Shown: positions 31,262 to 52,700, counted from the whole stretch's first letter. The stretch is DNA of 61,491 bases, filler included, from Catajapyx aquilonaris (GCA_000934665.2; 2 parts of 2 records of this genome joined end to end with filler, not necessarily neighbours in it), one strand, 5' to 3'. Numbers and translations: made by a program. The notes: a model not told the origin generated them from the letters alone.

Positions 31262-31336
31262 GTTGTTGGACGGGCTGAAATGTAGAAGACAATCATATCG
31301 GACGCCAGAGACCAAGTAAACTCGAGTAAACTGTAG
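31262..31336 (+). other. Putative 5'UTR exon B of TRPA copy 1
   Basis: Acceptor TTTTGTTACCTGCAG and donor AG|GTAAGT; a homologue with the same splice sites lies at 38260-38339. Confidence 0.5.
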
Positions 31337-31529
31337 GTAAGTGCATGGAGGAAAAATCAGAAATTTTGAGTTTGAATACCTGGCTATTGCCAACACAAAA
31401 TTTTGTTAGTACACTCTCAAGCTGTACACAAAAATAATAATGTTAATCATGCTACTTATGCATTCACATGGGGATAAATTCTACTTAGTAATTAGTAATT
31501 AATTCCAATTAAAGGTGTACCATCCGAGT

Positions 31530-34500
31530 ATGAAAATGGATCATTACAATCAACAGCAGGAGCGTATAGGCCTAAATATTCCGAATGACGAGACACCCAT
31601 AACACCTGGTGCCAATCAAGAAAGGACAGAATGTGGTGAGCCCGTGACCATGGCAGAGACAGGCCCAGAAGAAGATGAGATAAAAACAGTCATCACCAGA
31701 GCAAAAAGGCTCTTAGATCAAGAACCTAGAGACATCGAGAAAATGTCTCGAATGTTGTTTGAAGTCATTAGAGTGGCGGATGAACCAGAACTAGTGGAGA
31801 GGTTCCTCACAGTCAAGTATGGAGTCGATGTTAATGCTCGAGGTGACAAGGGATGGACACTGCTCCATGAAGCAAGTAATTTCTCTTGTGACAAAACACT
31901 AGGCAAGTTGCTGGAGAGGAAAGCCAGTGTGACTGTCACAGACGATGAAGGTGGCACAGCACTTCATTACGTCCGGACTAAGGAAAGTGCCATGCTGTTG
32001 ATTGGTGCAGGCGCGTCTGTCCATTCGAAGAACCTACACGGTGAAACACCGATTTTTGTTGCTGCGCGATCAAAGAATGTCGATGTTGCAAAGGTCTACC
32101 TGGATGTAGATGCGTTATGTGCCAATGGCGTGAACAAAAACGGCATGACTTCACGTTGCTGGGAAGGAATGTAGGAGATGGAAAGGTGAAAGGCAAAAGG
32201 ATTTGGGAGAAGAAGGGGAAACAAAGGAACAAGAGAGATTGAAACGGGAAGATGAGAGAGAAAGGCAAGAAAAAGAGAAGGAAACTGGCATGATAGACTT
32301 ACTCTTGGGGACACATTCTACTGGAGGAAAATACTGCTGCAGAAACATGTCTGCTATTCAGAATGAGGCTGGAAATACTCCAGTACATCTGGCTGCTGCA
32401 TTAGGAAGGAAGGACATCCTCGAGAAACTTCTGTTGTCCAACGCAACAAACTATTACAAAGCTCTGTGGACTCACAGCAATTCAGGAAGGACACCTCTAC
32501 ATCTAGCCGCAATAAGTGGCAATTTGGACCTTCTGGATTTGTGGGAGAAATGTCCTCGTCCTTTCGTCATGGCCAAAAAATATCGGTGGTTAGAAGCCAG
32601 GTTTGGCATTAGCTTTAATATGCATTCCCTCACTAGTCATGAAGAAGACATTGCGTCTCGTTTGGCAGGATGGAGAGAGGAAAAGGAATTATACGATCGC
32701 CTGATACAGGAAAATAATTCTAAATGTACTGAGTTGAAAGTTAAGTTAACTGCATTGGATGTTGATGTGGTGACTGAGTTGAACAGTGCGTTTGTAACTG
32801 AGTTGCTAACTGAGTTGAAAACAGCGTTGAAAACGAAGATAACTGGGTTGCAGCTTGAGGTTGCAAATGATTTGCTGAGTGAGTTGAACATCGAGTTGTT
32901 AACTAAGTCAACCGAGTGGAGGTCATCTAGAAATGAGGTCATTAAGTCAATTCGCAGCGTATGGTATGCAGGCAAAGATTTGGAAGGAAACACTGCTCTT
33001 CACATGGCAGTCAGACACTGTCAGAAGGATATGGCGTTGGAGCTTCTGTCAAGAGGCATGAAGGACATTCCAAATAAGCATGGTGACCGGGCCTTACACG
33101 TGGCGGTCACTGAAGGACACTTGGACGTCATGGAAGGATTGTTGGATGTCCAGGTTGGGACTGACTACCAGTACCGCCATAATGCTCGTAATAGAGAAGG
33201 ATGCACCCCTCTCCACATTGCAGCCCGATATGGGAGAAATGACATTGTGGAAGTCCTTCTAAGACTGGAAAACGTCATGATAAACGCAAAGAATTGGAAA
33301 GGGGAGACACCACTCCACGAAGCGGTGGTCAACAAGCACGAAGATGTCGTCAGAATTCTCATTCAGCACTGGGGAGATTTGGAGTGCAGAGTGGAAGATT
33401 TCTCGACTGGAGATCTCATCAAGAAACAATTTCCGGGACTGCTAGATTCGATCACACAACACAGTTTTGATAGACTCTGTCCACCATATGACTTGACCGC
33501 AGCACTTTATACAGAAAGGCCAGATGTATTAAAAGAAATACTGGAAACAAGGAAAAAACAACTGTCAAATAAAAAACGACGGGTGGACGTAGAAGAACAA
33601 TTGGTCAAGGTAGAACAACAACTGATAGAGGGAAAACGTCAACTGGAAAAGGAAGCGGAACTACAGGAAGAGGAGGAACGACTGAAAAAGCAAAAAGAAC
33701 TACAGGAGAAGGAAGAACAATTAGAAAAGGAAAAGGAACTACTGAGGAAGAAGATGCACCAACAAGAGAGAGAAGATTCCGAGAGATATCTTCTTGAACG
33801 AGCATGTGTCCTTGGACTTGAAAATTGTGCAGAGGAACTTCGCTGCAGCTCACACATTATTAAAAATGTTTACGAAAGGGGTAACAAATGGTTGATTCAA
33901 GCAGCAACATGGGGACGACTTGACATTTGGATGAGGCACAAAACCAGTCTGACAGATCTGAGAACCAATCAAAAAGAATGTGTGCTCCATCTTCTCGCTA
34001 AGGGAATTGACAAGATAGACACAGACGTTGTTGAATGTTGTTCTCAGGTGAACGAAAATAGTCAGACCCAAAGGTATGACGCCTGTATCGTAGAATTGCT
34101 GAAATATTTCGAGATAGACGAATCTACTAATCACTTGATCAACTCTGAAGACACTGAGGGAAGGACTCCTCTCCACTACTGCATTAAAAACCGAAGTGAA
34201 GACACCACTGTTGAGATGCTCTTGCACGGGGCCGATCCATGGATTGTAGATAAGGACACAGGCCAGCCACTGATAAATAACATTTCGGAATCAACATTGA
34301 ATAAATATTTCGACAGATGCATTAGACTGAGATCCAAATCATGCGACAACAACCAGAAAGCCCTGTTTAACTACCAGTTAATGAGGCCAACAAGAAATGC
34401 GACTGAATTCGAAATTCTCAAATATTTCAGCCAGACCAAGAAGCACGAGACTCTCCTGAATCATCCAGTTCTGTCTACGTTTCTCTACTTCAAATGGAAG

Positions 34501-35715
34501 AGTGTTCAGTGGTTGTTCTGGGCTAATTTTATCATACAATTTATATTTGTCGTGGTTTGGACAATTTACGTAACTCGGTCATCTTCGCCTGAAGACGATC
34601 ATTTTGTCAAAATACCTGCCATGGTGTGTGTGATTGCTTCCTCTTTTTGGCGTGAATTAGCATTCAGAGAATTGCGCCATATGGTACTAATTAAACGTTT
34701 TTATCGGTCCATAAGTGCCTTTGAATTTGGTATATTTGTACAATTTCCCTTACTATGGGTTAGCCTCTCATTGCCTCCCAGGTTAACATATCAAAACCTG
34801 GTAATAGTCACATTATATATTTGGTTGGAGCTTGTACTCATGATAGGCAGGCTCCCTAGCAAGCAAGGCATTACTGTAAAAATGTTTTGCTTTGTAGCAA
34901 AAAGATACGCTCATGGTATCCTGCCATTTATTTTCATGATTGCTGGCTTTTTCTTCGCTTTCCACCTCTTGGACCGTTTGCACACTGCCGGGTCCATATT
35001 CTCAACTGTGAATGGATCACTCACACTGATGGCTTCTCTCATTCTTGGGACAAAAGACTTTAAGGACTTGCCATTTGCTAATATGACGATATTTGGCCAA
35101 GTCATGTACATATCCTTCTTTATCATGGTTGTTTTAGTTTTGATGATTCTTGTTGCCCTCGCCGTCAACGAGACCCAGTCTATCATAAATGAGACAGAAC
35201 TTCATAGCAATAGATCAATGATTGAACTAATTTGTCATGTTGAATCCATCATTCGCTCCCTTGACCTTTTAAAAAATGCCTTTTCACGTCCATCAAGTAG
35301 CATAGAGATGTTTTTCAAGCTATTCGAGGAGCTGAATTTCGTGCTCATCCTCTCCGACAAATTTCATGGAGATGTGGTGGTGGATCTGTCCCCTGGAAAG
35401 GTTGTCCTTGAAATGGCAGATGGAGACGAGCCTAACTTTACTTGGAACCTGCCTCTCGAGAAATTGGAACCGCTGAAAAAATGCGTGAATAGAAATGGAG
35501 AAGGAAGCGATGTCATTTGCGTGAGTAGGCCTGCTGGTGAATCAGATGGAGATGACCGAAACTCGAAATTGCAGTTTTCAATAAAGCAGTTGAAGGATAA
35601 CTTGAGTAAAGAGACATTAGCACTGAAACAAGACATGTTAGAACTAAAACACAGTATTAGGGTGTTAACAGAAGCTGTAATGGCCATAAATGAGAAAAAT
35701 GTTTTTCCTAAGTGA
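31530..35715 (+). pseudogene. TRPA-family (painless-like) channel, copy 1; single coding exon, frameshifted
   Basis: ORFs 31515-32174 and 32203-35715 are the N- and C-terminal parts of one protein. Relative to copies 2 and 3 (ATGACTGTACTTCAC), 5 nt are missing at 32150/32151 (ATGACTTCAC). It has ankyrin repeats, LLNHPVLSTFLYFKW and a multi-pass TM region. It could instead be an assembly error or a null allele. Confidence 0.75.
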
Positions 35716-37576
35716 AGAAGAGTCTATACAATAACATATTAAAGCACTTACATGTGCTAGAGCAGGGGTGATAGCCTACATGAAAATAAATTATGACTAA
35801 AATTAATTCTTACATCGTCCTATACTCCCAATCCACATCAGCACGGTTTTTTTCCGCAGTATCATCCAGCCTGTTCCACCCCCCCCCCCCCAAAAAAAAA
35901 AACACTAACCTCTCAAAATAGCATTTTTCAAACGTAACGTGGCTTGGTATTTAAGGAAGAAAACATTTGCTATCCTATGTCAAGAATTGGCCCGAATTCG
36001 TCACGCCCTATGCTCAACAATGATGTATTCAGTAGGACCCAAATTAGACGTATTATCTTCACTTTCAGTTTTTGCTTCCACAATCAGCACCGGCAACACT
36101 TTTGGAACTCTCTGTATCCAGTATAACTGGAGGTAAGTCCTCAAGGCTGTATCAGACATTTTGAGTTCCATTTACCGCATGTTTCAAATGACAAAATGTT
36201 ATGAGAAAACTGTAGCTATCAACGGGATTTTAAAATTTATACATGGTTAACTATCTTCCTATATGTACATTTAAGTGTTTATGGGACTTTCCAACAATTA
36301 AGGTTCCCAAGCCCTTACACTGAACTACTAAAAGCAATACACAAAATCAACTACAACAATAAATATATTTTAAAACATTGGTAATCATGCGTCGAGCTTC
36401 CGCAGTCAAGTCATCGAGTCAACCAGTCCACGAACCTCCAGTCATTAAACAATCAGGCCACCAGTCATCCAAAAAAGTACATTTTGATGTGTAATCATAT
36501 GCCGTAATATACGAGTCAGAATGGAGGAATAGTTAGACTGTGGAGAGAATGAATTCACACTGTTCATTGATATTAATTTCTTGTGTTAATCAAATTAAAG
36601 ACAAATCCGAGAGTTTATTTTGATGTAATCATATAACATCAAGTGATGTATTCTTTTAATTTCCAATGGTAGTCGTGTCTTTGGTACTGATGAACTTCCT
36701 TATCTTTCACTGCCACAGATAATTTTTGTATTTCTTAGCCAAATGGTAATTTGCTGTTATAAATTTTTGAATAAACATAGATTAAAATGTTTTCCCCTCT
36801 AGTCAGTTCATAACTTCATTGATGTGTCTGTGTCAGCCTGATCCCCAAATACTGATGTGTAGGCAGGCAGCACCCTTTTCATACACTGGGTTGCATCCAA
36901 CATACACAATCATCACGGCATAGTCCCATGATGAGGTATAGTCAGCGATGACCAGGTCATACCCAGCCATCTCAATCGACCAATACATGAGAATCCTCTG
37001 ATAACTGGTCAGTGTCATGATATGTCTCGTTTTAATTATGTGCGCCCTGAAGTGGTAAAACATCTCACAAATACTACCCGTGAAAAGGATCCGAACAGTG
37101 GAAAATCGCCCGCCTTGGTTCGTGACTTTTTTTCTTGGTTCGTTACGGAGAGTTTTGTTGCGCTACGATGCAAAGAAAAGCAGATATCGGTACGTCAAGG
37201 GGACCAATGGATTCCTCACACTTTTCTTCTCTAGAGCATCTCTACACTGCCATCACAATCACTTAGAATTCGCAGACATACGCAAAGTTTTCGGCTTATA
37301 TTCCTATACTAATTAATGAAACTATCCACGAAAATGCAACATTATCTCACCCATAACTTAGACAGAACCCCAAAAAATTCGTCTTTTTCTTGTGCCGTCT
37401 TGTTCTTGCCATGTACATACCAGAAGTGTGTTTTTGACCTTTTCTGCAAGCTTAGATCAGTGACAGGTGGGAAAATCACCCTGCTCCAGTTACCTCGCGT
37501 GGAATATAAATCTGATTAATCAAAACCGGTATATTATTTTCCACATAGAGGCCAAGAAAATGGTCATGTATAGACT

Positions 37577-37726
37577 AAGTTATAACCGAGGTGAGCTGAA
37601 AATGAGTCTGCAATATCAAGAGTAAAAATACACAGGGTCTTATGAAAATATGGCGTGACCGGCCTTTCGAGACTGTTATAACCGAAAGTCCCTTATAGCT
37701 GAGGCTGTTATATCCGGATTCCACTG
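37577..37726. mobile_element. Partial MITE of the 25631 family
   Basis: Ends GTTATATCCGGATTCCACTG-TA with GTTATAACCGA subrepeats; a paralogous copy ends at 45350. Confidence 0.6.
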
Positions 37727-39005
37727 TAGGCTATAATCATATTGACATGACACGAGCTATTTATTAAATCACTGCTCTATTTAATAGGAGACATTTGTAA
37801 CTCTACAAATTAATATTATTTGAATCTGGACAAGATACGCCCATTGCAACTGTGGCCACTGTCTCTAACAGTCAGAAGTACCGTAACTGATACATTATAA
37901 TTATGGTCCCATTTCATTACCAAAGTACGCGTATGTGACCAATAATTATGGTCTATACTCTTCGGGGATTTCCCTCGCCCTTCTGAGACCTCTGGGCATG
38001 CATCCAAGTGTTGGAACATTTTATGGCCATGTTTTCATTTACACCAGTAGTGTCGGACAAAATTAGAAAACCGCAATTTAGAGAGCAGGGAGGTCAAGAT
38101 TATTATGATAGTCAAGAACTGATAAGACAGGACATGTTAAACTTTTTCCTTGTATATTACCAGTCGTTATTGACTGTATCTACTGTGCTGCAGCAATAAC
38201 AGAGGTAACATTGAGGTATATAAGTTTAGCTAGAAATTGATGACTTTTGTTACCTGCAGGTTGTGAAACGAGCTGAAATGTAGCAGCTACATCCGACGTT
38301 ACTGTAGGTCAAAGACACAGCATATAGTTGAGACTGTAGGTAAGTTGAGGCGAATATTATGGCATTTTGAGTTGGATTTAGGTAGAAGGTATTGCCAATG
38401 ACAATTATTTTGTGAGGTAATGGTATCGGGAGTTGGTGCATCGCACGTCCAAAAATTGGTTCTTGGAGGAACTGGGGATGTCACACCCGTGTTGCCAGTA
38501 CATTCGGCTCCAGGAAGATTCTCTTGATATTACGTGCCCATCCGCCTACCTGTGAGACCCCTGTACTTTTGGCCCCCAAAAAATTGCAAATCATTTTCGT
38601 ATAGCCCTCGTAGATGGTTTATAGTCCTGCGGGTTATTGAAAATGTGCACTTCGTGTCAAAAGCAATTTTAAATAATGCAGACACACAGTCAGATTATAG
38701 CTCAATTGGGTCATCAGCTCACTCAGCTGCAAAATTCATTTATTTGAAGATGAAATGTTGTAAAGGACTTGGGCTCCTTATGTAAAAGTTGCGCAGATGG
38801 ATTATGCTGAAACTTGATCAGTTCATGAAGCTCGACCCCAGGGTCAAATGTTGTAAGTTGATGCAATAGTATATCACCATTTACAGCACCGGGACGGATA
38901 TTATATGCAATGACCTATAAGTGTAGGTGTAATATTCATGACAATAAGACTATACTAAGATATGAGTAGAAGTACATTTTCAGCTCAACTGATTTCCATT
39001 TCTAG

Positions 39006-39088
39006 GTATAGAGTCGCAATGAAGAGTAGAGCGCCATCTCCGGTTAAATTGGACACACCTTTAAATCTACAGTTTATTTGACCACAAG
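39006..39088 (+). other. Putative 5'UTR exon A of TRPA copy 2
   Basis: TTTCTAG acceptor and AAG|GTAGGT donor; the next acceptor is at 39359, just before ATG 39383. Confidence 0.55.
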
Positions 39089-39382
39089 GTAGGTAAAGGT
39101 CCTGCTTCATGCATTAGGAACTGAATCAGCACTTTCAAATTGTAAGATATATTACGTATTACAATCATCAGATCGAATGCTGTTGTGATTTCAAGTCCAC
39201 AATGTACTCGTGAGTCAAGGAATTTAGCCACATATTTCGCTGTTTTAACAGAAAAAGAGTGACAGCAGTATACATACAGCAACCATAGTTTCAGTTTTAG
39301 TACAAGTGTGTTTTGCTAAAAAATTAGAATTACTTAAAAGCAGTTAATTCAATTCACAGGGATACCATCCGAATATACGACG

Positions 39383-42300
39383 ATGGATCCTTCGAAGCAA
39401 CCACAGGATATAGAACTGAAGGATATGAGTGGACGGGAACCCGTAAAGTCTGGTGCCCCCCAAGTCAAGGACGAGACAATAATTATCCCAATCGAAACAC
39501 AACAGGGTGAAGAAGATGAGAGCATGAAAATTATCAACGAAGCTACAAGGCTCTTAGATCAAGGTTTTCAAGACAAAAAAGAATTGACTGAGATGTTGTT
39601 TGAAGTGATTAGAGTGGCGGATAAACCAGAACTAGTGGAGAAGTTTCTTAAAATCAAGGATGGGGTCGATGTTAATGCTGTAGGCGACAAGGGATGGACA
39701 TTGCTCCATGCAACAAGCAATTTCTGTCGTGACAAAGCACTACACAAGCTGCTGGAAATGAAGGCCGATGTGAATGCCAGAGACAATGAAGATTGCACAG
39801 CACTTCATTACATCGGGACAAAGGAAGGCGCCGAGTCTCTGATCAAGGCAAAGGCGTCCGTCCACGCCAAAGACCGATGCGGTGAAACCCCTCTTTTTGT
39901 TGCTGTTCGATCAAAAAACTGGGAAGTTGCAAAGGTTTTCCTGGATACAGATGCGACATGTATTGATGAAGTCAACAGAGACGGAATGACTGTACTTCAC
40001 GTTGCTGTGAAAGAATGTCGAGGATGGAGAACGATAGACAGATTGAAACGGGAAGGGGAAACAGAGGCTGATCAACAAGAAAGCTTGAAACAGGAACAGG
40101 AAAAATTTAAAAAGGAAAATGAAGTGATAGATCGACTACTGGGGATTCAGAATGACGGGGAAATATTAATACGCTACTGCAGAAACATGTCTGTCATTCA
40201 GAATGAGGCTGGTAATACTGCAGTCCACCTGGCAGCTGCATTAGGAAGGAAGGACATCTTGGAGAAACTGCTGTCGTACAGCGCACCTAACTATTACTAC
40301 GTTGCTCTGTGGATTCACAACAATGCAGGAAGAACTCCTCTACATCTAGCGGCAATGAGTGGCAATCCCGACCTTCTGGACTTGTGGGAAAATTGTCCTC
40401 GTCCTTCCGTCATGACCGGAATGTCCCGATGGTTCGGCCTTGGTACTTTGCTTTCCCTTACTAGCCACGAAGAAGACATTGGGTATAGTTTGGCAGGCTG
40501 GAGCGCGGTAAAAAAGAAATGTGATTTTCTCATACACGAAAATTATCCTACACACACTGAGTTGAAAATTGTCGTAACTAAGTTAACTGAGTTGAAAATT
40601 GCCGTAACTAAGTTGTTCACTGAGTTGAAAACTGAGGTAACTCATATCGAAACTGAGTCGATAATTGAGTTACCTAAATTGAAAACTGAGATAAATGAAT
40701 GGAAAAAGAAGGTAATTACATTAGAAACCAAGTTGAAAACTAAGTTAACACGGTTCAAAACTCAGATACATGATTTGAAAACTGAAGTAAGTAATAAGTT
40801 GAAATCTGAATTGCAAACAGGGGCAACTGAATTGGTAACCGAGTTGTCGACTGCGTTAACTAAGTTTAAAACTGAGGTTACTGTTTTGGAAACTGAGTTG
40901 GAAATTGAAGTAACTAATTTGGAAAAAGATATGTTGACTGAGATAACTGAGTTGATAAGTGAGGGATCTCAGTTAGGAACTGAGTTTACAAGGAAGTTAC
41001 TTAAGTTGAAAGACAGTGTAACTGAGTTGGAAACTAAGTGCAAATCTAAGATAACTGAGTTGGAAACTAAGTGCAAATCTAAGATAACTGAGTTGGAAAC
41101 TAAGTGCAAAACTAAGTTAACTAAGTTGGAAAATAAGTTACTTGAGCTCGAAAGATGTAGAGATAATGCTAAAGAATCAATGCGCAACATATGGTATCCA
41201 GCCAAGGACTTGGAAGGTAACACTGCCCTCCATTTGGCAGTCAGACACGGTCAGAAGGATATGGCGCAAGAGCTGATGACCAGAGGGATGAAGGACGCCC
41301 CAAATAAGCATGGTGACCGGGCATTGCACGTGGCGGTCTCTGAAGGACACTTTAGTGTTATGATGATGTTGTTGTATGTAATCGTTACCCGTGACTTCCA
41401 GTACCATCACAATGCCCGTAATATAGAAGGATGCACCCCTCTGCACATTGCAGCCCGATCTGGAAGGAAGGACATGGTGGAAGTCCTTTTAAGACAGAAA
41501 TGTGTCATGATAAATGCAAAGAATTGGAAAGGGGCAACCCCACTCCACGAAGCGGTGGTCAACAAGCACGAAGATGTCGCCAGAGTACTCATTCAGCACT
41601 GGGGAGATTTGGAGTGCATAGTGGACGGTGTCTCGACTGAAGATCTCATCATGAAGCAATTTCCGGGCTTGCTAGATTCTATCACACAACATACTTTTGA
41701 CAAACTATGTCCACGTAATGACTTGACTGCAGCACTTTATATAGAGAGGCCACATGTATTGAAACTAGTAATGGAAACAAGTAAAAAAACACTGAACGAG
41801 GTAAAAGAACAACTGGAAAAGGTAAAACTTCAACTGGCTGATGATACGGAACAACTGGAAAAGGAGGAACTACTGAAAAAACAAAAAGAACTGCAGGAGA
41901 AGGAAAAGGAAATTCACCAACCATTGAGTTACCTTCTTGAACGAGCATCTGTCCTTGGACTGGAAAGTTGCGTTGAGGAACTTCGCAGCAACTCCCACAT
42001 TATTAAAAATGTTAACGAAAGGGGTAACAAGTGGTTGACTCAAGCAGCATCGTGGGGACGTTACGAAATATTGATGAGGTACAAGAGCGGTCTGATGTAT
42101 TTGCGCACCAAACGAAAAAAAGACGGGGTACTCCACCTTCTATCTCAGGGACTTGACAATAGAGGGACAGACGCAGTTGAATGTTGTTCTCAGGTGAACG
42201 AAAATAATCAGACCCAAAGGTATGACGCCTGTATCGTTGAATTGCTGAAACATTTCAAGTCAGACGAATCTTCGAATCAATTAATCAACTCTGAAAACAC

Positions 42301-43963
42301 TGATGGAAGAACGCCTCTCTACTACTGCATCACAAACAGAAGTGAAGACACCACTGTTGAGATGCTCTTGCACGGGGCCGATCCATGGAAATTAGACAAG
42401 GACACAGGCCGGCCACTGATAAATAAGATTTCGGAATCAACTCTGAAAAAATATTTTGACAGATGCATTACACTGAGATCCAAGTCCGGCGACAATAACC
42501 TGAAAGCCTGCGTTAATTACCAGTTGATGAAGCCAAGAAGAAATGCGGCCGAATTTGAGATTCTGGAACATTTCAGCCAGACAGAGAAGCACAGGCCTCT
42601 CCTGAATCATCCAGTTCTCTCAACGTTCCTCTACTTCAAGATGAAGAATGTTGAGCTGTTGTTCTGGATTAATTTTATCATGTATGCTACATTTGTCGCG
42701 TCATGGACAATCACTGTGATTTTACCGTTGTTCTTGCCGGAAGACGAACATTTTCCAATAATTCTTAGAGTTTTCTGGTTGATTTCTTTCGATTTGTGGG
42801 TTGTCATGATTATCAGAGAATTTCTTCAAATGCGTCCAGATTTCAAGAAATATGTTCATCACTGGGAAAATATTACTGAAATTGGTATAATTTTTACATG
42901 TCTCCCTACTTTTTTTGGTTGGCCAAAACCTTCTTGGTTCATACATCACAGCCAGGCATTAGCCACACTCTTGATTTGGATGGAACTTGTAATGATGATG
43001 GGCAGGATCCCATACAAACGTGGCAATTTTGTGCAAATATTTTTCGCCGTAGCTAAAAGGTACGGTACGGGTTTCCTGGCACTTGGTGTCTTGATTGTTG
43101 GTTTTTGGTTCACTTTCATACTCCTGGACCATTTGTACCCTAAACCAGGTTTTGAACTTGGGGGGTCCTTATTCTCGAGTATGAATGGATCATTCTCACT
43201 GATGGCTTCTCTTATTCGAGGGGGAACCGACTTTCAGGACTTACCGTTTGCATACCTGACGATATTTGGCCAGATGATGTACATATCCTTCCTTCTCTTC
43301 GTTGTTTTAGTTTTCATGAATCTTCTTAATGCCTTAGCCTTCAACGAAACGCAAATTATCACAAATGAGGCAGAACTACACAGCAAGATATCAACTATTC
43401 GGCTAATTTGTCACATAGAATTAATTTTTTGGTCCAGGGCCTTTTCTACAAAATCTTATTCAAGTCAGTCAAGTATCATGTATAAGTTTTTGAAAAGGTT
43501 AGAGTGGCTGAGGCAACTGGTCATTCTCTCTCCCAAATTAAAGGACGATGTAGTGGTGGACTTGTCCACTGGAAAGGTCATGTTTGAAATGGCGGACGGA
43601 GAGGAACGCAACTTTCCTTGGGAGCTGCCTCGTGACAAATTGGAACCCCTGAAGGAATGGGTTAATCGCAATAAAGAAACAAGCGATTACATGGGCGTGA
43701 GCACTGGTGTATCAGCGGGAGAAGACAGTAAATCGAAATTACAAGAATTGCAGTGTTCAATAGAGCAGTTGAAATATAATTTGAAGAAAGAGACGTCAAC
43801 GCTGAAAGATGATTTGTTCGAACTAAGATGTGATTTGTTCCAACTGAAAGATGATTTGTCAGAACAACATGGCAGGATGAGGGTGATGTTAACAGAAGCT
43901 GTAATGGCGATAAATGAGAAAATGCCCAGAAGTGAAGAAGGACCTGTACAAAGCACAAGTTAA
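39383..43963 (+). CDS. TRPA-family (painless-like) ankyrin-repeat cation channel, copy 2, 1526 aa, single coding exon
   Basis: Uninterrupted ORF with about 12 ankyrin repeats (GWTLLH, GETPLF, GRTPLH, GNTALH, GCTPLH, GATPLH...), ISESTLKKYFDRCI, LLNHPVLSTFLYFK, a six-TM-like region, S6 MNLLNALA and a C-terminal coiled coil. The subfamily (painless versus wtrw/pyx/TRPA5) is an inference. Confidence 0.9.
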   Translation: MDPSKQPQDIELKDMSGREPVKSGAPQVKDETIIIPIETQQGEEDESMKIINEATRLLDQGFQDKKELTEMLFEVIRVADKPELVEKFLKIKDGVDVNAVGDKGWTLLHATSNFCRDKALHKLLEMKADVNARDNEDCTALHYIGTKEGAESLIKAKASVHAKDRCGETPLFVAVRSKNWEVAKVFLDTDATCIDEVNRDGMTVLHVAVKECRGWRTIDRLKREGETEADQQESLKQEQEKFKKENEVIDRLLGIQNDGEILIRYCRNMSVIQNEAGNTAVHLAAALGRKDILEKLLSYSAPNYYYVALWIHNNAGRTPLHLAAMSGNPDLLDLWENCPRPSVMTGMSRWFGLGTLLSLTSHEEDIGYSLAGWSAVKKKCDFLIHENYPTHTELKIVVTKLTELKIAVTKLFTELKTEVTHIETESIIELPKLKTEINEWKKKVITLETKLKTKLTRFKTQIHDLKTEVSNKLKSELQTGATELVTELSTALTKFKTEVTVLETELEIEVTNLEKDMLTEITELISEGSQLGTEFTRKLLKLKDSVTELETKCKSKITELETKCKSKITELETKCKTKLTKLENKLLELERCRDNAKESMRNIWYPAKDLEGNTALHLAVRHGQKDMAQELMTRGMKDAPNKHGDRALHVAVSEGHFSVMMMLLYVIVTRDFQYHHNARNIEGCTPLHIAARSGRKDMVEVLLRQKCVMINAKNWKGATPLHEAVVNKHEDVARVLIQHWGDLECIVDGVSTEDLIMKQFPGLLDSITQHTFDKLCPRNDLTAALYIERPHVLKLVMETSKKTLNEVKEQLEKVKLQLADDTEQLEKEELLKKQKELQEKEKEIHQPLSYLLERASVLGLESCVEELRSNSHIIKNVNERGNKWLTQAASWGRYEILMRYKSGLMYLRTKRKKDGVLHLLSQGLDNRGTDAVECCSQVNENNQTQRYDACIVELLKHFKSDESSNQLINSENTDGRTPLYYCITNRSEDTTVEMLLHGADPWKLDKDTGRPLINKISESTLKKYFDRCITLRSKSGDNNLKACVNYQLMKPRRNAAEFEILEHFSQTEKHRPLLNHPVLSTFLYFKMKNVELLFWINFIMYATFVASWTITVILPLFLPEDEHFPIILRVFWLISFDLWVVMIIREFLQMRPDFKKYVHHWENITEIGIIFTCLPTFFGWPKPSWFIHHSQALATLLIWMELVMMMGRIPYKRGNFVQIFFAVAKRYGTGFLALGVLIVGFWFTFILLDHLYPKPGFELGGSLFSSMNGSFSLMASLIRGGTDFQDLPFAYLTIFGQMMYISFLLFVVLVFMNLLNALAFNETQIITNEAELHSKISTIRLICHIELIFWSRAFSTKSYSSQSSIMYKFLKRLEWLRQLVILSPKLKDDVVVDLSTGKVMFEMADGEERNFPWELPRDKLEPLKEWVNRNKETSDYMGVSTGVSAGEDSKSKLQELQCSIEQLKYNLKKETSTLKDDLFELRCDLFQLKDDLSEQHGRMRVMLTEAVMAINEKMPRSEEGPVQSTS
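41018..41120 (+). repeat. 33-bp coding tandem repeat, about 3 copies (ITELETKCKSK)
   Basis: ATAACTGAGTTGGAAACTAAGTGCAAATCTAAG is repeated within TRPA copy 2. Confidence 0.9.
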
Positions 43964-44861: not shown

Positions 44862-45198
44862 AAGGAGGCGAAGTGGCGCTGCCGCTGCGGTAACGACGCA
44901 CGCGCCCACAGATGTTAATGTCCCGGGTTCGATCCCAGCCCGGGGTTCCCCCCTTCATCTCGTACAGAGTTGGGGCCATCTCTGGCTTCGTCTCGGGTGG
45001 ATTTTCTTAGACTAACCGCCCGGGGGAGTTCACAAAATGACCTCACCCACGACGTAGCACTGCACTTTGCACATCCCCCCTTCGCTCGCGGTACCCGGGC
45101 GTTACGCCTAAGGACCAAAAATGTTAGCTTGTACATCTTAAGCAAAATAAAGGTACCGTGCCAGATGTGCCTCGTTGGGCGGTGCACTAAACTCAATG

Positions 45199-45256
<58 letters not shown>

Positions 45257-45259
45257 ATA
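44862..45259 (+). mobile_element. tRNA-derived SINE with (TTG)n tail
   Basis: B box GGTTCGATCCC, a (TTG)n tail at about 45198-45256 and a 16-bp TSD ATATAGAAATATGGCG / ATATGGAAATATGGCG. The empty site is present at about 37642-37656. Confidence 0.85.
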
Positions 45260-45699
45260 ATATGGAAATATGGCGGGGCCGGCCTTTCAAGCCTAGCTGT
45301 TACAACCGAAAGTCCCTTATAGCTGAGGCTGTTATATCCGGATTCTACTGTAGGCTGTAATCATATTGACATGGCACGAGCTGCTCTAGGGGACATACCT
45401 GTAAGGTTGCAACTCCAGAATTTGAATCTGGATAAGAGACGCCCAGCAACTGCGCCCACTCTCTCTAACAATCAGACGTTACGGATATATTGTATGGTCC
45501 TATTTCATTACCAAAATATATTATGAAATTTTCAATATGGTGTGTATTCTTCGGGGATTCCCTCGCCCTTCTGAGAGCTCTCGGCACGCATCCAAGTGCG
45601 TAGCACGTGTTATTCGGTACTGCCATGCCGTCGCGTCGCCTATTTAGAAGCTCACGCAGAGCTCACGTGTCCGCAATTTGTACTGCCAGCATGTGAATG

Positions 45700-45752
<53 letters not shown>

Positions 45753-46246
45753 GGGTAGTGCCGCTTTCACCATACGTTACCGCAACGCCTCCCCAGAGTC
45801 CAGACTGCCAGCATGTCAATGTAAATGTCAACACACTCTCTGCAGGGATTTACCTCGTCCTTCGGGCTACCCTCGGCACAAGTCCAAGTATGTAAACTCT
45901 TCGCAGCATCCGTTTTAGACTAGTATGCGCAATCTCAGCTGTGGCCAGAAGTGGTCCAGTAAACGTTCATCGGGTATTTCCCAGTCAGAATCCTTAGCTT
46001 TCATCCAAGGGCTCATGTACTATAGGCATTTTATGTCCTGCTGGGAGCCAGAAATACCCCTCGAACTTGAGAAGCAGCATCCGGCCACAGTAGTCCCCGC
46101 GTTAGTTCATTTGGCTTCTGGACGTGGTAAAGATTGTGTGCGGGTTCATATTTCTCTGAACCAAACGTTAGACTTGGTCACAACTTTGCCAGTGAGGCCT
46201 ACACCAGCAGTGCCTCCGAGAATACTGCCTTCGCCTTTGTTTCAGT
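45700..46246 (-). mobile_element. Probable 5'-truncated non-LTR retroelement with (GAT)n tail
   Basis: A (CAT)n run at 45700-45750 is followed by a GC-richer body, with a possible TSD GTGAATGC / GTGAGTGC. It lies within an approximately 835-bp segment absent from the paralogous site at about 38010. Confidence 0.45.
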
Positions 46247-47511
46247 GAGTGCTCATTATTAAGGTGCATATTGCTGCATGTTAATATTAACAATTTTTAT
46301 TGTTCAAATAAAGGGGAAGTAACATTATCATGCATTAATTTTATTCATATTGCGATAATAGACTGTCTTTGTTATCTGAAACAGACCCTTCAATTTTTGG
46401 AACATTAGCAAAATCTTGGAAATAGGCATAAACATTGGAACATTATATGCCCTTGTTTTTATTTACAACAGTACTCTTCTTGTAGTGTCGGACAAAATTA
46501 GAAAACCGTAATAGAGAGGGCAAGGAGGTCAAGATATGAGCTAGCTAAATTACCTGATGAGGTAGGACTGTGTTATTTGCCAAAAATACATGCACACATT
46601 ATCGAGAGATTCCTCCTGGAGCCGAATGCATGCACTGGCAACCTCTCCAGGCCCTTCAAGAACCACTTTTTGCAGGTACTGCGCACCCACTCCTGGAGGA
46701 ATTGTAGAGAAAAACGTGTGGCATTCCATCTGTGATCGGTCGCATATCTCAGAATTTTCTCAGCAAATTAGTGATGAATCTGCAAAACATCCCTCATATT
46801 TTCTCGCAAGCCATGCATTAGCATACCTGGTTTCAAATTGAACATATTATTTAACCTTATGTGGGTCACAACTTATGATTGTCACCAAATATGACTGGCG
46901 TTACGCAAGCACATCACTAATTATATCGGAGTCCAAATTCATGGACATGTGGCTGAGCATGTGACGAATAGTACGAATGGTAGACGTTCTTCTGCTTACA
47001 TTTTTGAGGAGAATGTATTAATTTCATAGTTGCATTTTTCTAGCCTTATTTACTTCATTTGATATCTATGTTTACTGGGTTTTGACCAATTCCACTAACC
47101 GAAAAAGTTCTTCCAAAAAAAGGACTCATTTGTACAGCATTTGTAGCCATTTTAGCAAAATATGCAGACATGTTTAAAGGTATTTATTTATTCACTTATT
47201 TTAACCAAAATGGCAAACATCGCTAATATGAAATGTGGCATATTTGTAAATTTTGCAATTTTTTTTTACAAAATTCAATCAGAATTAATTTCCAATATTA
47301 TAACTTCATTATATGCCTTAGACTGTAGAAGATTAACTGAAGCATAGTTTATGCAATATTATATCACCATTTACAGCACTGGGACAGAATATTATGTGAT
47401 GACATATTAAAGTGTAGGTATTTGTATAATATTCATGACAATAAGGCTATACTAAGATATGAGTTTTAGTCCATCGAGTACATCCTCAGCTCAACTGATT
47501 TCCATTTCCAG

Positions 47512-47644
47512 GGAGACTCGGAATGATGCGTCATGAAATACTAATTATTCTGGACAGAAGGCACAGCAGCCAACAAATATTGTAGAGCGCCATCTTCTCT
47601 TTCATCGGACAACCATTTAAATCTATAGCTTATTTGATCACAAG
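47512..47644 (+). other. Putative 5'UTR exon A of TRPA copy 3
   Basis: TTTCCAG acceptor and AAG|GTAGGT donor; the next acceptor is at 47941, before ATG 47961. Confidence 0.55.
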
Positions 47645-47960
47645 GTAGGTAAAGGTCCTGCTTCATGCATTAGGAACTGAATAAGCACATTCAGAAATTA
47701 AGATATGACAGCTCTTGATATCACATATTACAATCATCGATGATTGTAATATGATTGTGATCTGATCAGATCGAATGCTGTTGTGATTCCAAGTCCACAG
47801 TGTACTCGTGAGTCAAGGAATTTACGGACATATTTAGCTGTTGTGACAGAAAAAGAGCGACAGCAATCATAGCTTTAGTTTTAGTACAAGTAGTGGTGTA
47901 TAAAAATGAGAATTAATTACAAGCAGTTAATTCAATTCAAGGGCATCCGAGTATACGACG

Positions 47961-50900
47961 ATGAATACTTCGAAGCAACCACAGAGTGAGGATATGGAAC
48001 TGAAGGATTTGAGTGAAAGGGCATCCTTAAAGTCTGATGATGTCCCCCAAGGCAAGGACGATACAATAATTATCCCAATCGAAACACAACAAGGTGAAGA
48101 TGATGAGAGAGAGATTATCAAGGAAGCTACAAGGCTCTTAAAACAAGGTTTTAAAGACAGAAAAGAATTGACTGAGATGTTGTTTGAAGTGATTAGAGTG
48201 GCGGATGAACCAGAACTAGTGGAGGAGTTTCTTACAATCAAGGATGGAGTTGATGTTAATGCTGTAGGCGACAAGGGATGGACACTGCTCCATGCAACAG
48301 GCCATTTCTCTCGTGACCAAACACAAAACATGTTGCTCGACAGGAAAGCCAGTGTGAATGTCACAAACGATGACGGTTGCACAGCACTTCATTACATCGG
48401 GACAAAGGAAGGCGCCGAGTCTCTGATCAAGGCAAAGGCGTCCGTCCACGCCAAAGACCGATGCGGTGAAACCCCTCTTTTTGTTGCTGTTCGATCAAAA
48501 AACTGGGAAGTTGCAAAGGTTTTCCTGGATACAGATGCGACATGTATTGAAGAAGTCAACAGAGACGGAATGACTGTACTTCACGTTGCTGTGAAAGAAT
48601 GTCGAGGATGGACAGATGAACGGCTAATAGACAGATTGAAACGGGGAGGGGAAACAGAGGATGAGAAACAAGAAAGATTGAAACGGGAACAGGAACATTT
48701 TAAGAAGGAAAATTATATGATAAAATTATTAATACGCTACTGCAGAAACATGTCTGTCATTCAGAATGAGGCTGGTAATACTCCAGTCCACCTGGCAGCT
48801 GCATTAGGAAGGAAGGACATCATGGAGAAACTGCTGTCGTCCAGCGCACCTAACAACTATTACGTTGCTCTGTGGACTCACAACAATGCAGGAAGAACGC
48901 CTCTACATCTAGCCGCAATGAGTGGCAATCTCGACCTTCTGGACTTGTGGGAAAATTGTCCTCGTCCTTCCGTCACGACCAGAATGTCTCGATGGTTCGG
49001 CATTGGTACTCTGCATTCCCTTACTAGCCACGAAGAAGACATTGCGTCTAGTTTGGCAGGCTGGAGCGCGGAAAAGAAGAAATGTGATTTTCTCATACAA
49101 GAAAATGATCCTACTCACACTGAATTAAAAACTAAGTTAACTGAGTTGAAAATTGCAGTAGCTGAGTTGTTCACTGAGTTGAAAACTGAGGTAACTCATA
49201 CCGACAATGAAACAATGATAACTGAGTTACCTAAATTGAGAACTGAGATAAGTGAACGTGAAAAGAAACTAACTACATTACAAACCGAGTTGAAAACTAA
49301 GCTAACTGAGTTCAAAACTAAGATAACTAAGTTGAAAACTGAAGTGCAAACAGGGGCAACTGAAGTGCAAACAGGGGCATCTGAAGTGCAAACAGGGGCA
49401 ACTGAAGTGCAAACAGGGGCAACTGAAGCGCAGACAGGGGCAACTGAAGTGCAAACAGGGGCAACTGAAGTGCAAACAGGGGCAACTGAAGTGCAAACAG
49501 GGGCATCTGAAGTGCAAACAGGGGCATCTGAAGTGCAAACAGGGGCAACTGAAGTGCAATTCTGTTGCTCCTGTTTGCAATTCTGTTGCCCCTGTTTGAA
49601 AACAGGGGCAAATGAATTGCAAACAGTGGTAACTGCATTGCAAACAGGGGCAACTGAAATGGTTTCCGAGTTGGCGACTGCGTTAACTAAGTTTAAAACT
49701 GAGATTACTGATTTGGAAACTGAGTTGGAAACTGAGGTAACTAATTTGGAAAAAGTGTTGACTGCGTCAACTGAGTTGTTAAGTGAGGGATCTATGTTGG
49801 AAACTGAGATTATAAGCAATTATAAGTCAACGTTGAAAGCCAACGTAACTGAGTTGGAAGCTAAGTGCGTAACTAAGTTAACTGAGTTGGACAATAAGTT
49901 ACTTGAGCCCGAAAGATGTACAGATAATGCTAAAGAATCAATGCGAAACCTGTGGTATCCAGCCAAGGACTTGGAAGGTAACACTGCCCTCCATTTGGCA
50001 GTCAGACACGGTCAGAAGGATATGGCGCAAGAGCTGATGACCAGAGGCATGAAGGACACCCCAAATAAGCATGGTGACCGGGCATTGCACGTGGCGGTCA
50101 CTGAGGGACACTTGGACGTCGTGCAGGGATTGTTGGAATTCCAGGTTGGGACTGATAACCAGCAGTACCGTCACAATGCTCGTAATACAGACGGATGCAC
50201 CCCTCTGCACATTGCAGCCCGATCTGGGAGGAAGGACATGGTGGAAGTCCTTTTAAGACAGAAGTATGTAATGATAAACGCAAAGAATTGGAATGGGGCA
50301 ACCCCACTCCACGAAGCGGTGGTCAACAAGCACGAAGATGTCGCCAGAGTACTCATTCAGCACTGGGGAGATTTGGAGTGCAGAGTGGATGGTATCTCGA
50401 CTGAATATCTCATCATGGAACAATTTTCGGGCTTGCTAGATTCTATCACACAACTTACCTTTGACAAACTGTGTCCACGTAATGACTTGACTGCAGCACT
50501 TTATATAGAGAGGCCACATGTATTGAAGGAAATACTGGAAACAAGTAAAAAATCACTGGACGAGATAAAAGAACACCTGGCAAAGGTAAAACTTCAACTG
50601 GCAGAAGAAACGGAACAACTGGAAGATGAGGAACTACTGAAAAAGCAAAAAGAACTGCAGGAGAAGGAAAAGGAGATTCACCAACAACTAAATAGAGACA
50701 TTTCTTCGAGTTACCTTCTTGAACGAGCATCTGTTCTTGGACTGGAAAGTTGTGTTGAGGAACTTCGCAGCAACTCACACATTATTAAAAATGTTAACGA
50801 AAGGGGTAACAAGTGGTTGACTCAAGCAGCATCGTGGGGACGTTACGAAATATTGATGAGGGACATGAAAGGTCTGAAGGATTTGTGCACCAAACGAAAA

Positions 50901-52700
50901 CAAGACGGCGTGCTCCACCTTCTATCGCAGGGACTTGACAATAGAGACGCAGACGCTGTTGCATGTTGTTCTCAAGTGAACGAAAATAGCCAGACCCAAA
51001 GGTACGACGCCTGCATCGTAGAATTGCTGAAATATTTCGAGTTAGACGAATCTACTAATCATTTGATCAACTCCGAAAACACTGATGGAAGAACGCCTCT
51101 GTACTACTGCATCACAAACAGAAGTGAAGACACCACTGTTGAGATGCTCTTGCACGGGGCCGATCCATGGAGAATAGACAAGGACACAGGACAGGCACTG
51201 ATAAATAACATTTCGGAATCAACATTGAATAAATATTTTGACAGATGCATTACACTGAGATCCAAATCCGGCCACAATAACCTGAAAGCCTGCGTTAATT
51301 ACCAGTTGATGAAGCCAAGAAGAAATGCGGCCGAATTCGAGATTCTGGAACATTTCAGCCAGACAAAGAAGCACAGGCCTCTCCTGAATCATCCAGTTCT
51401 CTCAACGTTCCTCTACTTCAAGATGAAGAATGTTGAGTGGTCGTTCTGGCTTAATTTTATCATGTATGCTACATTTGTCGCGTCATGGACAATCACTGTG
51501 ATTTTCCCGTTGTTCTTGCCGGAAGACGAGCAGTTTCCAATAATTCTTCGAGTTTTCTGGTGGATTTCTTTCAATTTGTGGGTTGTCATGATTATCAGAG
51601 AATTTCTTCAAATGAGTTCAGATGTTTATAGATATGTTCGTCAATGGGAAAATTTTCGTGAAACTGTTATAATTTTTACCTGTCTCCCGACTTTTTTTGG
51701 TTGGCTAAAACCTTCTTGGTTCATACATCACAGCCAGGCATTAGCCACACTCTTGATTTGGACGGAACTTGCAATGATCATGGGCAGGATGTCATACGAA
51801 TATGGCAGTTTTATGAAAATGTTTTTCGCTGCAGCGAAAAGGTACTGCACGGGTTTCCTGACACTTGGTGTCTTGATTGTTGGTTTTTGGTTCTCTTTCA
51901 TACTCCTGGACCATATGTACCCTAAACCAGGTTTTCAACGTGGCGGCTCCTTATTCTCGAGTATGGATGGATCATTCTCACTGATGGCTTCTCTTATTCG
52001 AGGGGGAACCGACTTTCAGGACTTACCATTTGCATACCTGACGATATTTGGCCTGATGTACGTATCCTTACTTATCTTCGTTGTTTTAGTTTTCATGAAT
52101 ATTCTTAATGCCTTAGCCTGCCAGGAAGCCCAAAATATCTCAAGTGAGGCAGAACTGCACAGCAAGATATCAACCATTCGGCTAATTTGTTACATAGAAG
52201 TAATGTTTTGGACCAGGTCCTTTTCTAAAAAATCGTATTCAAGTCAGTCAAATATCATACAGAAGTTTTTGAAAAAGTTAGAATGGCTGAGGCAACAGGT
52301 CATCTTCTCTCCCAAATTAAAGGGAGATGTAGTGGTGGACCTGTCCACTAGAAAGGTCACGTTTGAAATGGCGGACGGAGAGGAACGCAACTTTCCTTGG
52401 AAGCTGCCTCGTGACAAATTTGACGACCTGAAGGAATGGGTTAATCGCAATAAAGAAATAAGCGACTACATGATGGGCGTGAGCACTGGTGTATCAGCGG
52501 GAGAAGACAGTAAATCGAAATTACAAGAATTACAGTTTTCGATAGAGCAGTTGAAATATAATTTGAAGAAAGAGACGTCAACGATGAAAGATGAATTGTT
52601 CGAACTAAAAGACAGTATGAGGGTGTTAACAGAAGCTGTAATGGCCATAAATGAGAAAATGTCCAGAAGTGAAGAAGGACCTGTACAAAGCACAAGTTAA
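47961..52700 (+). CDS. TRPA-family (painless-like) ankyrin-repeat cation channel, copy 3, 1579 aa, single coding exon
   Basis: Uninterrupted ORF, collinear with and highly similar to copy 2, with the same ankyrin, pre-S1, TM and coiled-coil features. Confidence 0.9.
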   Translation: MNTSKQPQSEDMELKDLSERASLKSDDVPQGKDDTIIIPIETQQGEDDEREIIKEATRLLKQGFKDRKELTEMLFEVIRVADEPELVEEFLTIKDGVDVNAVGDKGWTLLHATGHFSRDQTQNMLLDRKASVNVTNDDGCTALHYIGTKEGAESLIKAKASVHAKDRCGETPLFVAVRSKNWEVAKVFLDTDATCIEEVNRDGMTVLHVAVKECRGWTDERLIDRLKRGGETEDEKQERLKREQEHFKKENYMIKLLIRYCRNMSVIQNEAGNTPVHLAAALGRKDIMEKLLSSSAPNNYYVALWTHNNAGRTPLHLAAMSGNLDLLDLWENCPRPSVTTRMSRWFGIGTLHSLTSHEEDIASSLAGWSAEKKKCDFLIQENDPTHTELKTKLTELKIAVAELFTELKTEVTHTDNETMITELPKLRTEISEREKKLTTLQTELKTKLTEFKTKITKLKTEVQTGATEVQTGASEVQTGATEVQTGATEAQTGATEVQTGATEVQTGATEVQTGASEVQTGASEVQTGATEVQFCCSCLQFCCPCLKTGANELQTVVTALQTGATEMVSELATALTKFKTEITDLETELETEVTNLEKVLTASTELLSEGSMLETEIISNYKSTLKANVTELEAKCVTKLTELDNKLLEPERCTDNAKESMRNLWYPAKDLEGNTALHLAVRHGQKDMAQELMTRGMKDTPNKHGDRALHVAVTEGHLDVVQGLLEFQVGTDNQQYRHNARNTDGCTPLHIAARSGRKDMVEVLLRQKYVMINAKNWNGATPLHEAVVNKHEDVARVLIQHWGDLECRVDGISTEYLIMEQFSGLLDSITQLTFDKLCPRNDLTAALYIERPHVLKEILETSKKSLDEIKEHLAKVKLQLAEETEQLEDEELLKKQKELQEKEKEIHQQLNRDISSSYLLERASVLGLESCVEELRSNSHIIKNVNERGNKWLTQAASWGRYEILMRDMKGLKDLCTKRKQDGVLHLLSQGLDNRDADAVACCSQVNENSQTQRYDACIVELLKYFELDESTNHLINSENTDGRTPLYYCITNRSEDTTVEMLLHGADPWRIDKDTGQALINNISESTLNKYFDRCITLRSKSGHNNLKACVNYQLMKPRRNAAEFEILEHFSQTKKHRPLLNHPVLSTFLYFKMKNVEWSFWLNFIMYATFVASWTITVIFPLFLPEDEQFPIILRVFWWISFNLWVVMIIREFLQMSSDVYRYVRQWENFRETVIIFTCLPTFFGWLKPSWFIHHSQALATLLIWTELAMIMGRMSYEYGSFMKMFFAAAKRYCTGFLTLGVLIVGFWFSFILLDHMYPKPGFQRGGSLFSSMDGSFSLMASLIRGGTDFQDLPFAYLTIFGLMYVSLLIFVVLVFMNILNALACQEAQNISSEAELHSKISTIRLICYIEVMFWTRSFSKKSYSSQSNIIQKFLKKLEWLRQQVIFSPKLKGDVVVDLSTRKVTFEMADGEERNFPWKLPRDKFDDLKEWVNRNKEISDYMMGVSTGVSAGEDSKSKLQELQFSIEQLKYNLKKETSTMKDELFELKDSMRVLTEAVMAINEKMSRSEEGPVQSTS
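49338..49559 (+). repeat. 21-bp coding minisatellite, about 10.5 copies ([T/S]EVQTGA)
   Basis: Tandem ACTGAAGTGCAAACAGGGGCA units, followed by two inverted units. Confidence 0.95.

Follow-up and report, generated by a model that had tools for sequence, protein, structure and literature searches.

A length-variable helical insert in the ankyrin domain of Painless-like TRPA genes of Catajapyx aquilonaris

Three Painless-like TRPA genes, all on the plus strand at positions 31530-52700 of a 61,491-nt stretch of the Catajapyx aquilonaris genome (GCA_000934665.2; hereafter the window, with an assembly gap at 30639-30738), carry at one and the same site of their ankyrin domain a helical insert of variable length, which is built in part of short repeats and accounts for up to 330 extra residues. 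The insert architecture is real and apparently undescribed, and is so far confined to a young subclade of this one genome. We propose, with a probability of roughly 0.55, that the insert is a tolerated intramolecular hairpin, which grows because its own core-position motifs are substrates for slippage. The genes are:

31530..35715, plus strand: copy 1, a frameshifted Painless-like TRPA gene, whose first frame ends at a stop at 32174 and whose second frame has an ATG at 32290
39383..43963, plus strand: copy 2, a Painless-like TRPA gene, intact single open reading frame (ORF) of 1526 amino acids
47961..52700, plus strand: copy 3, a Painless-like TRPA gene, intact single ORF of 1579 amino acids

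In all three copies the insert lies between the ankyrin motifs GRTPLH and GNTALH, with LAGW before and WY after it, and the variable part between these bounds comprises 96, 230 and 296 in-frame residues in copies 1, 2 and 3, exactly the position, bounds, coordinates and sizes that an earlier note on this DNA had given. Comparison with the insert-free paralogue L024 places the true start of the insertion some 36-41 residues upstream of LAGW, at CPRP, and yields extra lengths of 135, 264 and 330 residues; the LAGW-to-WY lengths were thus right, but the insertion itself is larger and begins earlier.

32551..32961, plus strand: copy 1 main insert, 135 extra residues (variable part 32674-32961, 96 residues)
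40394..41191, plus strand: copy 2 main insert, 264 extra residues (variable part 40502-41191, 230 residues; predicted hairpin arms of 117 and 123 residues)
48957..49952, plus strand: copy 3 main insert, 330 extra residues (variable part 49065-49952, 296 residues; predicted arms of 107 and 101 residues flank a 102-residue array)

The earlier description of the inserts as assemblies of ACTGAGTTG-type units agrees with the distribution of this motif, whose plus-strand matches in the window (18/18) all fall inside the three inserts, with none on the minus strand. Tandem Repeats Finder (TRF) detected both the 33-bp array of copy 2 and the 21-bp array of copy 3 that had been reported before, but the former covers just 120 of the 690 nt of its insert, in which a 30-bp repeat is also present. 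Within the copy 3 array, at about 49555-49598, an in-frame micro-inversion of about 40 bp spans two repeat units and reads FCCSCLQFCCPCL; the event is typical of template switching, and the 7-residue hydrophobic spacing is retained across it by chance.

40556-40642, plus strand: copy 2 30-bp repeat (TRF)
40811..40825, plus strand: LQTGA, the central helix break in the copy 2 model and putative hairpin tip; this unit is amplified in copy 3
41019-41138, plus strand: copy 2 33-bp repeat (TRF, 3.6 copies)
49337..49658, plus strand: copy 3 21-bp (EVQTGAT) array (TRF, 15.3 copies as assembled, a number beyond check by contigs)

Paralogues elsewhere in the genome form a graded series with these genes. 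The spacing from repeat to repeat at the insert site is 32 residues in L024, 89 in L025, 107 in L021, 108 in L022, 167 in copy 1 and L023, 277 in L042, 296 in copy 2 and 362 in copy 3, corresponding to extra lengths of 0, 57, 75, 76, 135, 135, 245, 264 and 330 residues at a single site, and the series is nested in a clade with support of 100/99. The short inserts of L021, L022 and L025 are helix-turn-helix-like, and a genome search with the start of the insert returned seven places, all within the insert subclade. This gradation at one site indicates that the insert grew stepwise by slippage, in keeping with the earlier claim that its length evolves in this way. The process is ongoing, as L042 carries an insert of 211 residues where the near-identical copy 2 has 230 (8 and 11 fewer on the two sides of the centre), and L045, a relic of a copy 3-like gene, has an N terminus that runs directly into a short array of about five QTGATE-type units (1353-1607). 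The paralogues show that an ancestral helix-turn-helix of about 55-75 residues was placed behind the outer helix of the sixth ankyrin repeat that can be recognised, and several indels show that it then lengthened by in-frame slippage between TEL/TKL-coding motifs. Since these motifs would lie at the hydrophobic seam, their duplication may leave the helix amphipathic without selection having to act.

In line with a coiled-coil-type insert, as had been claimed, hydrophobic residues recur every 3.63 positions throughout the inserts of copies 2 and 3, and every 3.78 positions in copy 1 (matched by 0 of 300 shuffles each), and the AlphaFold models, made from alignments of 8 rows, are all-helical in this region. 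The copy 2 insert is modelled as helices 97-156, 169-212, 218-262 and 267-340, with blocks of predicted local distance difference test (pLDDT) scores of 37-74 and parts of the model below 50, and that of copy 3 as helices 97-154, 160-257 and 263-406 (pLDDT 49-72), with most of the flanking ankyrin repeats near 90. The central break of copy 2 coincides with LQTGA, further breaks lying 44 and 45 residues to either side, and that of copy 3 falls within the stretch encoded by the 21-bp array. In both models, the ankyrin repeats on the two sides of the insert fit gankyrin as a single stack (214 and 215 of 224 residues, root-mean-square deviation 2.2 Å, Z 22.9 and 24.8), so that, contrary to the earlier note, the domain is not structurally split; as a continuous stack holds the ends of the insert together, a rod has to fold back. 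We therefore favor, with low to moderate confidence, a hairpin about 16-22 nm long in which the insert forms an antiparallel coiled coil within its own subunit, predicted to loop out of the continuous ankyrin stack and point away from it, the antiparallel geometry being taken from helix breaks and stack continuity rather than from coordinates. The predicted arms are balanced (117/123, 109/112 and 107/101 residues) and, at a helix rise of 0.1485 nm per residue, would be about 16-18 nm long, reaching about 22 nm in copy 3 should the array double back.

The insert frame is open, compared with 13-50 stops in the other two plus-strand frames, and shuffled inserts are stop-free in 7, 0 and 0 of 20,000 cases for copies 1, 2 and 3. 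Every indel between copies 2 and 3 (18 of 18) is divisible by three, and none of their 403 substitutions has created a stop. Neutral simulations remained stop-free in 0 of 1000 runs for the whole gene and in 1% of 5000 for the insert alone; the insert is thus very probably translated, and selection still maintains an open frame in copies 2 and 3. Clear constraint between these two copies is limited to the post-insert repeats, which show 61 amino acid changes against 81.4 under neutrality and ratios of nonsynonymous to synonymous substitution rates (dN/dS) of 0.43 and 0.29 in two blocks. The insert itself has accumulated 57 amino acid changes against 59.8 neutral ones, 8 against 7.3 of them hydrophobic-to-polar, with a dN/dS of 0.76 (0.47-1.39). 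The two frameshifted genes copy 1 and L023 give a dN/dS of 1.19 when compared with each other. We propose that selection keeps the insert translatable and probably roughly balanced, its sequence and length remaining unfixed, and that any gating which copies 2 and 3 have kept would still operate via the conserved membrane-proximal repeats.

The main insert is accompanied by two further helical insertions in the ankyrin domain. A second E/K/Q-rich helix of variable length, correctly described before, has 84, 55 and 61 residues in copies 1, 2 and 3 compared with 14-16 in L021, L024 and L025, and a third, charged insertion within ankyrin repeat 4 has 48-57 residues compared with 12 in L024 and L025; the latter, the copy 1 frameshift and the copy 3 inversion go beyond the earlier note.

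32170..32340, plus strand: copy 1 charged helical insertion in repeat 4, 57 residues
33535..33786, plus strand: copy 1 second E/K/Q-rich helix, 84 residues
40016..40180, plus strand: copy 2 charged helical insertion in repeat 4, 55 residues
41765..41929, plus strand: copy 2 second E/K/Q-rich helix, 55 residues
48600..48743, plus strand: copy 3 charged helical insertion in repeat 4, 48 residues
50529..50711, plus strand: copy 3 second E/K/Q-rich helix, 61 residues

Membership of the TRPA family, as previously assigned, is borne out by the ankyrin array (Pfam Ank_2, E 5e-57 and 4e-60 in copies 2 and 3), with which the gankyrin fold match of the predicted models agrees, and by a transmembrane (TM) region profile that matches TRPA proteins down to E 1e-50; the absence of a Pfam Ion_trans match in the window genes indicates a divergent TM domain. 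Searched against 1.84 billion proteins, the profile gave 1951 matches, and among 20 of these checked by name the family-named ones bear a Painless-like, pyrexia-like or TRPA1-homolog label. The 150 best library matches to the TM profile score 103-189 bits and are mostly Painless-like; human TRPA1 reaches 32 bits (E 5e-7), which argues against TRPA1 membership. A word-index search with the TM region gave 2 matches. The same query has 52 matches in the genome itself, fragments counted, many of them in tandem clusters and as single ORFs, in a family that usually has few copies.

Phylogenetic placement is based on an IQ-TREE analysis of the TM domain (42 rows by 378 columns), from which TRPA1 rows are absent and in which group labels were mostly assigned from the motif of the sixth TM segment (S6) and tree position; the named TRPA5 rows P0192 and P0221 lie outside the tree, and 9 outside proteins were dropped from a first one. 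The tree unites 12 of 13 genome paralogues in one clade (100/99) and splits this clade together with the Painless-like rows from pyrexia/water witch and TRPA5 at 100/100. The named Painless proteins of Gryllus (painless, P0006) and a barnacle (painless-like, P0007) fall on the same side as the genome clade, P0017, pyrexia-like by source name, groups with Painless, and the TRPA5 rows P0140 (54% identical to Heliconius TRPA5) and P0220 stand on the opposite side of the 100/100 branch. The placement of the genome clade relative to the other Painless rows, nested among them or sister to them, has support of 72/74 only, and FastTree left its deep placement without resolution. The stem branch of the insert subclade is long (0.70 vs 0.26 and 0.31 for sister tip branches). 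S6 is of the Painless type N-L-L-N-[GA]-L-A-V-S-D-T-Q, with copies 2 and 3 keeping N-L/I-L-N-A-L-A and drifting downstream, and copy 1 lacking the first N, an Asn present in 142 of 142 homologues. Pyrexia/Water witch identity (S6 N-L-L-V-G-L-A-V-S-D-I) is contradicted by the S6 motif and the tree, and TRPA5 identity by the 100/100 split. Within a large Painless-like TRPA expansion of one arthropod genome, copies 1-3 are young, evolve fast and are subject to gene birth and death; their cation conduction as tetramers and their activation by heat or mechanical force are putative.

The pore filter deviates in all three copies:

35029..35061, plus strand: copy 1 pore helix and filter, MASLILGTKDF, without the G-E/D acid
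43202..43234, plus strand: copy 2 pore helix and filter, MASLIRGGTDF, without the G-E/D acid
51984..52016, plus strand: copy 3 pore helix and filter, MASLIRGGTDF, without the G-E/D acid

The filter G-[ED] (M-x-x-G-[ED]) occurs in 139 of 142 outside rows and in 15 of 17 other genome paralogues, including L025, and in 0 of 6 members of the core subclade (copies 1-3, L021, L022 and L023). By sequence comparison its absence would be a derived loss inside the Painless clade, which lowers the expectation that these proteins work like Painless but not the case for descent. The acid at the corresponding position determines Ca2+ permeability in mammalian TRPA1. RpTRPA5B conducts despite a missing filter glycine (PMC10993193), so that altered selectivity is likelier than certain channel death, and the pore of copies 2 and 3 is probably less selective for Ca2+ or less conductive. 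Two genes at L032, close to the insert subclade in the FastTree phylogeny, have the filter G-Q, a second change at the same site.

Several results weigh against a hairpin that is tolerated rather than used. The insert reaches pLDDT values of only about 37-74 from an 8-row alignment, with its hairpin geometry deduced, and the balance of the arms across independent indels could mean a selected shape, in a sample of three non-independent cases. Rates that look neutral also occur outside the insert and may conceal positive selection, copies 2 and 3 having a dN/dS of 1.02 in the TM domain and 1.2 in the N-terminal repeats, at few synonymous sites. The short ancestral insert, as carried by L021 and L022, is constrained (dN/dS 0.40, 0.15-0.81), and the insert of copy 1 differs from that of L023 by 3 synonymous changes and 1 replacement. 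Finally, as RpTRPA5B illustrates (PMC10993193), a deviant filter need not kill the channel.

A first alternative is a selected spacer, tether or docking rod, four of which per channel would reach a partner such as the cytoskeleton, a second membrane or a signalling protein, with length setting reach or leverage and paralogues thus differing in tuning. Balanced arms with expansion at the predicted tip, an unbroken amphipathic period, three separate helical insertions in one subclade and an open frame under selection in copies 2 and 3 would all be expected of such a rod, and the 0.70 stem branch and changed filter are compatible with a new role. We nonetheless consider it unlikely, as the core positions, like all others, show no conservation above the neutral expectation, near-identical copies differ in length (230 vs 211 residues) and copy 3 tolerates a Cys/Pro-bearing inversion. 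Furthermore, a Drosophila Painless isoform nearly devoid of ankyrin repeats rescues mechanical nociception where the full-length protein does not, and the Painless repeats matter for thermal, not mechanical, nociception (PMC3266251), which makes a tether function of the ankyrin arm less likely in this clade. The "tunable rod or tether" of the earlier note therefore finds no positive support in view of neutral-rate sequence drift, several broken copies and a degenerate pore filter. It is likewise improbable that copies 2 and 3 function as sensors built to a new TRPA design, in which each subunit would bear, on an intact ankyrin stack, a 16-22 nm hairpin whose slippage-set tip length would determine reach to a partner or mechanical leverage, and in which the altered filter would make for low-Ca2+ or non-conducting regulatory subunits.

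The opposite extreme, that the whole long-insert subclade is decaying into recent pseudogenes or non-conducting relics with inserts as mutational by-products, has on its side the frameshifts in 3 of 5 long-insert copies (copy 1, L023 and L042, with L023 also carrying a TAG after S6), the deleted relic L045, the loss of the filter acid, the missing S6 Asn of copy 1 and the TM dN/dS of 1.02 between copies 2 and 3. We judge it quite unlikely, given that the 403 substitutions and 18 indels separating copies 2 and 3 left no stop or frameshift, as in none of the 1000 neutral runs, that the post-insert repeats are conserved (61 vs 81.4 changes), and that deeper paralogue pairs show dN/dS values of 0.48-0.78 in the TM domain and 0.29-0.34 in the post-insert ankyrin repeats.

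The copy 1 lesion is:

32140..32155, plus strand: copy 1 frameshift, a 5-nt deletion near 32149 (DNA contigs over 31770-33305 and an RNA-like contig over 31977-32492, 0 differences)

Contigs from the DNA runs X1 and X2, which represent one sample and are possibly the source of the assembly, match 31770-33305 and 49530-49982 with 0 differences, and the copy 1 frameshift and insert and the copy 3 inversion are therefore not consensus errors; an assembly artefact is ruled out for all three by these contigs, subject to that possible common source. Copy 1, the spacer and the start of copy 2 have a collinear counterpart in contig C5948 (92-97% identity), and C13205, which carries L042, shows 44 differences from copy 2 over 1608 sites besides indels of 4, 24 and 33 nt. 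Both probably represent the other haplotype, with L023 and L042 as putative alleles, the alternative being a recent duplication.

A true split of the ankyrin domain, in which a parallel coiled-coil stalk of the four subunits would place the N-terminal six repeats some 30-45 nm from the channel, would suit the coherence of the hydrophobic phase across 230 residues at 3.63, a hendecad-like period, and hendecad-like periods do occur in parallel tetramers. This arrangement appears very unlikely, as the stack is continuous in both models, the models break the helix mid-insert, and L021, L022 and L025 carry helix-turn-helix-like inserts at the same site. Least credible of all is an insert that is spliced out or disordered, leaving an ordinary Painless-like channel, for although each insert contains single GTRAG-type donors and the copy 2 model lies partly below pLDDT 50, the frame is open against chance and through all indels, helical periodicity is strong, and the purine-rich inserts have no polypyrimidine acceptor near their 3' end. 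A polypyrimidine-plus-AG motif is common to the three copies at 32636, 40464 and 49027, at the start of the first long helix of the insert, and no donor matching it was found.

Run X5, from a second study, is not on record as RNA; that it is RNA is indicated by a GT..AG joint from 46244 to 47512, upstream of copy 3, and by a loose end at 31513 that matches 31305-31334 exactly, directly upstream of a consensus donor.

31305..31514, plus strand: end of a copy 1 5'-untranslated region (UTR) exon (to 31336) and intron 31337-31514 (GTAAGT..AG)
46245..47511, plus strand: spliced intron upstream of copy 3, probably in the 5' UTR (X5 joint, consensus GT..AG sites)

X5 carries the frameshifted copy 1 sequence unaltered over 31977-32492, and its piece at 41170-41569 has six variants among those listed, all of which match L042, so that the best-covered transcripts stem from a broken copy and an L042-like copy. 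From the ATG at 32290, copy 1 could give a 1141-residue product without the first four repeats; N-terminally shortened isoforms are described for Drosophila painless (PMC3266251). Among the X5 pieces listed none bridges an insert, coverage there being absent or partial (zero over the copy 3 ORF, with one piece reaching 22 nt into the copy 2 insert under a 31-nt rule), and among the joints listed none skips one; neither result is evidence either way.

Searches beyond the genome yielded no counterpart. A coiled-coil scan of 148 outside proteins, to which the separately retrieved TRPA5 proteins did not belong, peaked at 0.70 compared with 2.46 and 3.21 here, and is blind to short inserts, having missed the 96-residue one of copy 1. 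Of 1204 matches to the insert region, the 120 listed are generic ankyrin proteins, none with Ion_trans; ESM Atlas returned generic ankyrin clusters alone (at most 0.85), and the literature within reach, namely titles and abstract openings, with most subscription papers outside it, holds no description of such an insert. No outside example was thus found, but the earlier suggestion of a TRPA subfamily goes too far, the insert being seen only in a subclade within one genome.

The present proteins share with Painless the S6 of N-L-L-N-[GA]-L-A type, ankyrin repeats, six TM helices and a C-terminal coil, and differ from it in length (1526-1579 residues in copies 2 and 3, mostly 900-1000 in Painless), in their three helical insertions in the ankyrin domain and in the loss of the filter G-E/D acid, as well as in having at least 11 recognisable repeat motifs compared with 8 in Drosophila (PMC3266251). 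The stacking break of Painless between repeats 5 and 6 is a model-level feature, and the available part of PMC10993193 makes no mention of a long insert. TRPA5, exemplified by RpTRPA5B (Lienard et al. 2024, PMC10993193), is similar in its lineage-specific tandem expansions, extra repeats, longer inter-repeat loops and deviant filter, but forms a separate clade, and the available part of that paper, which describes clade-specific stacking breaks and longer loops in TRPA channels, reports no coiled-coil hairpin of 100-300 residues. Human and Drosophila TRPA1 also have a long ankyrin domain, whose repeats wrap a C-terminal four-helix coil (PMC10073219); that coil is C-terminal and intermolecular, unlike the insert within the ankyrin stack described here. 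Indels in specific ankyrin units are known and common, often serving protein interactions (PMC11514114), and in comparison with ankyrin solenoid insertions generally the present ones are larger (up to 330 residues), grow by repeats and form a graded series in one gene family. A part in heat and chemical gating, as well as in contacts between subunits, is attributed to the ankyrin arms of TRPA channels (PMC10073219, PMC10993193).

At three loci, ORFs without introns that by eye resemble ionotropic receptors run antisense close to Painless-like genes, and (GGTTA)11, a repeat of the arthropod telomere type, occupies an interstitial position at 55512-55566 of the window. A Helitron-like helicase fragment, also identified by eye, lies at L048 4226-4984 (minus strand) between the paralogues L022 and L021, and L021 2500-3560, upstream of the ORF, contains no coding match for the first four repeats, this gene being either truncated or spliced from a distant exon.

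Window 19734-22506, plus strand: multi-exon sugar transporter gene (weak Sugar_tr match)
Window 23737-25566, minus strand: ionotropic-receptor-like ORF (by eye, no Pfam match), across the assembly gap at 30639-30738 from the array
Window 58160-60550, plus strand: multi-exon transglutaminase gene (Transglut_core match)
L025 6723-7499, L047 723-2657 and L027 68-2131, minus strand: ionotropic-receptor-like ORFs (by eye)

The weight of these findings is limited by their restriction to one genome as far as searched, by the several broken copies and by the putative nature of channel activity. Within these bounds, one site of the ankyrin arm takes up to 330 extra residues with the stack whole in the models, and the family clearly exemplifies the de novo origin of a long coiled coil via slippage, seen at several stages. 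The graded natural series, complete with an insert-free relative, suits swap experiments, and if copies 2 and 3 were indeed sensors of a new design, the range of 0-330 residues would serve as a natural ruler for the coupling of the ankyrin arm to gating.

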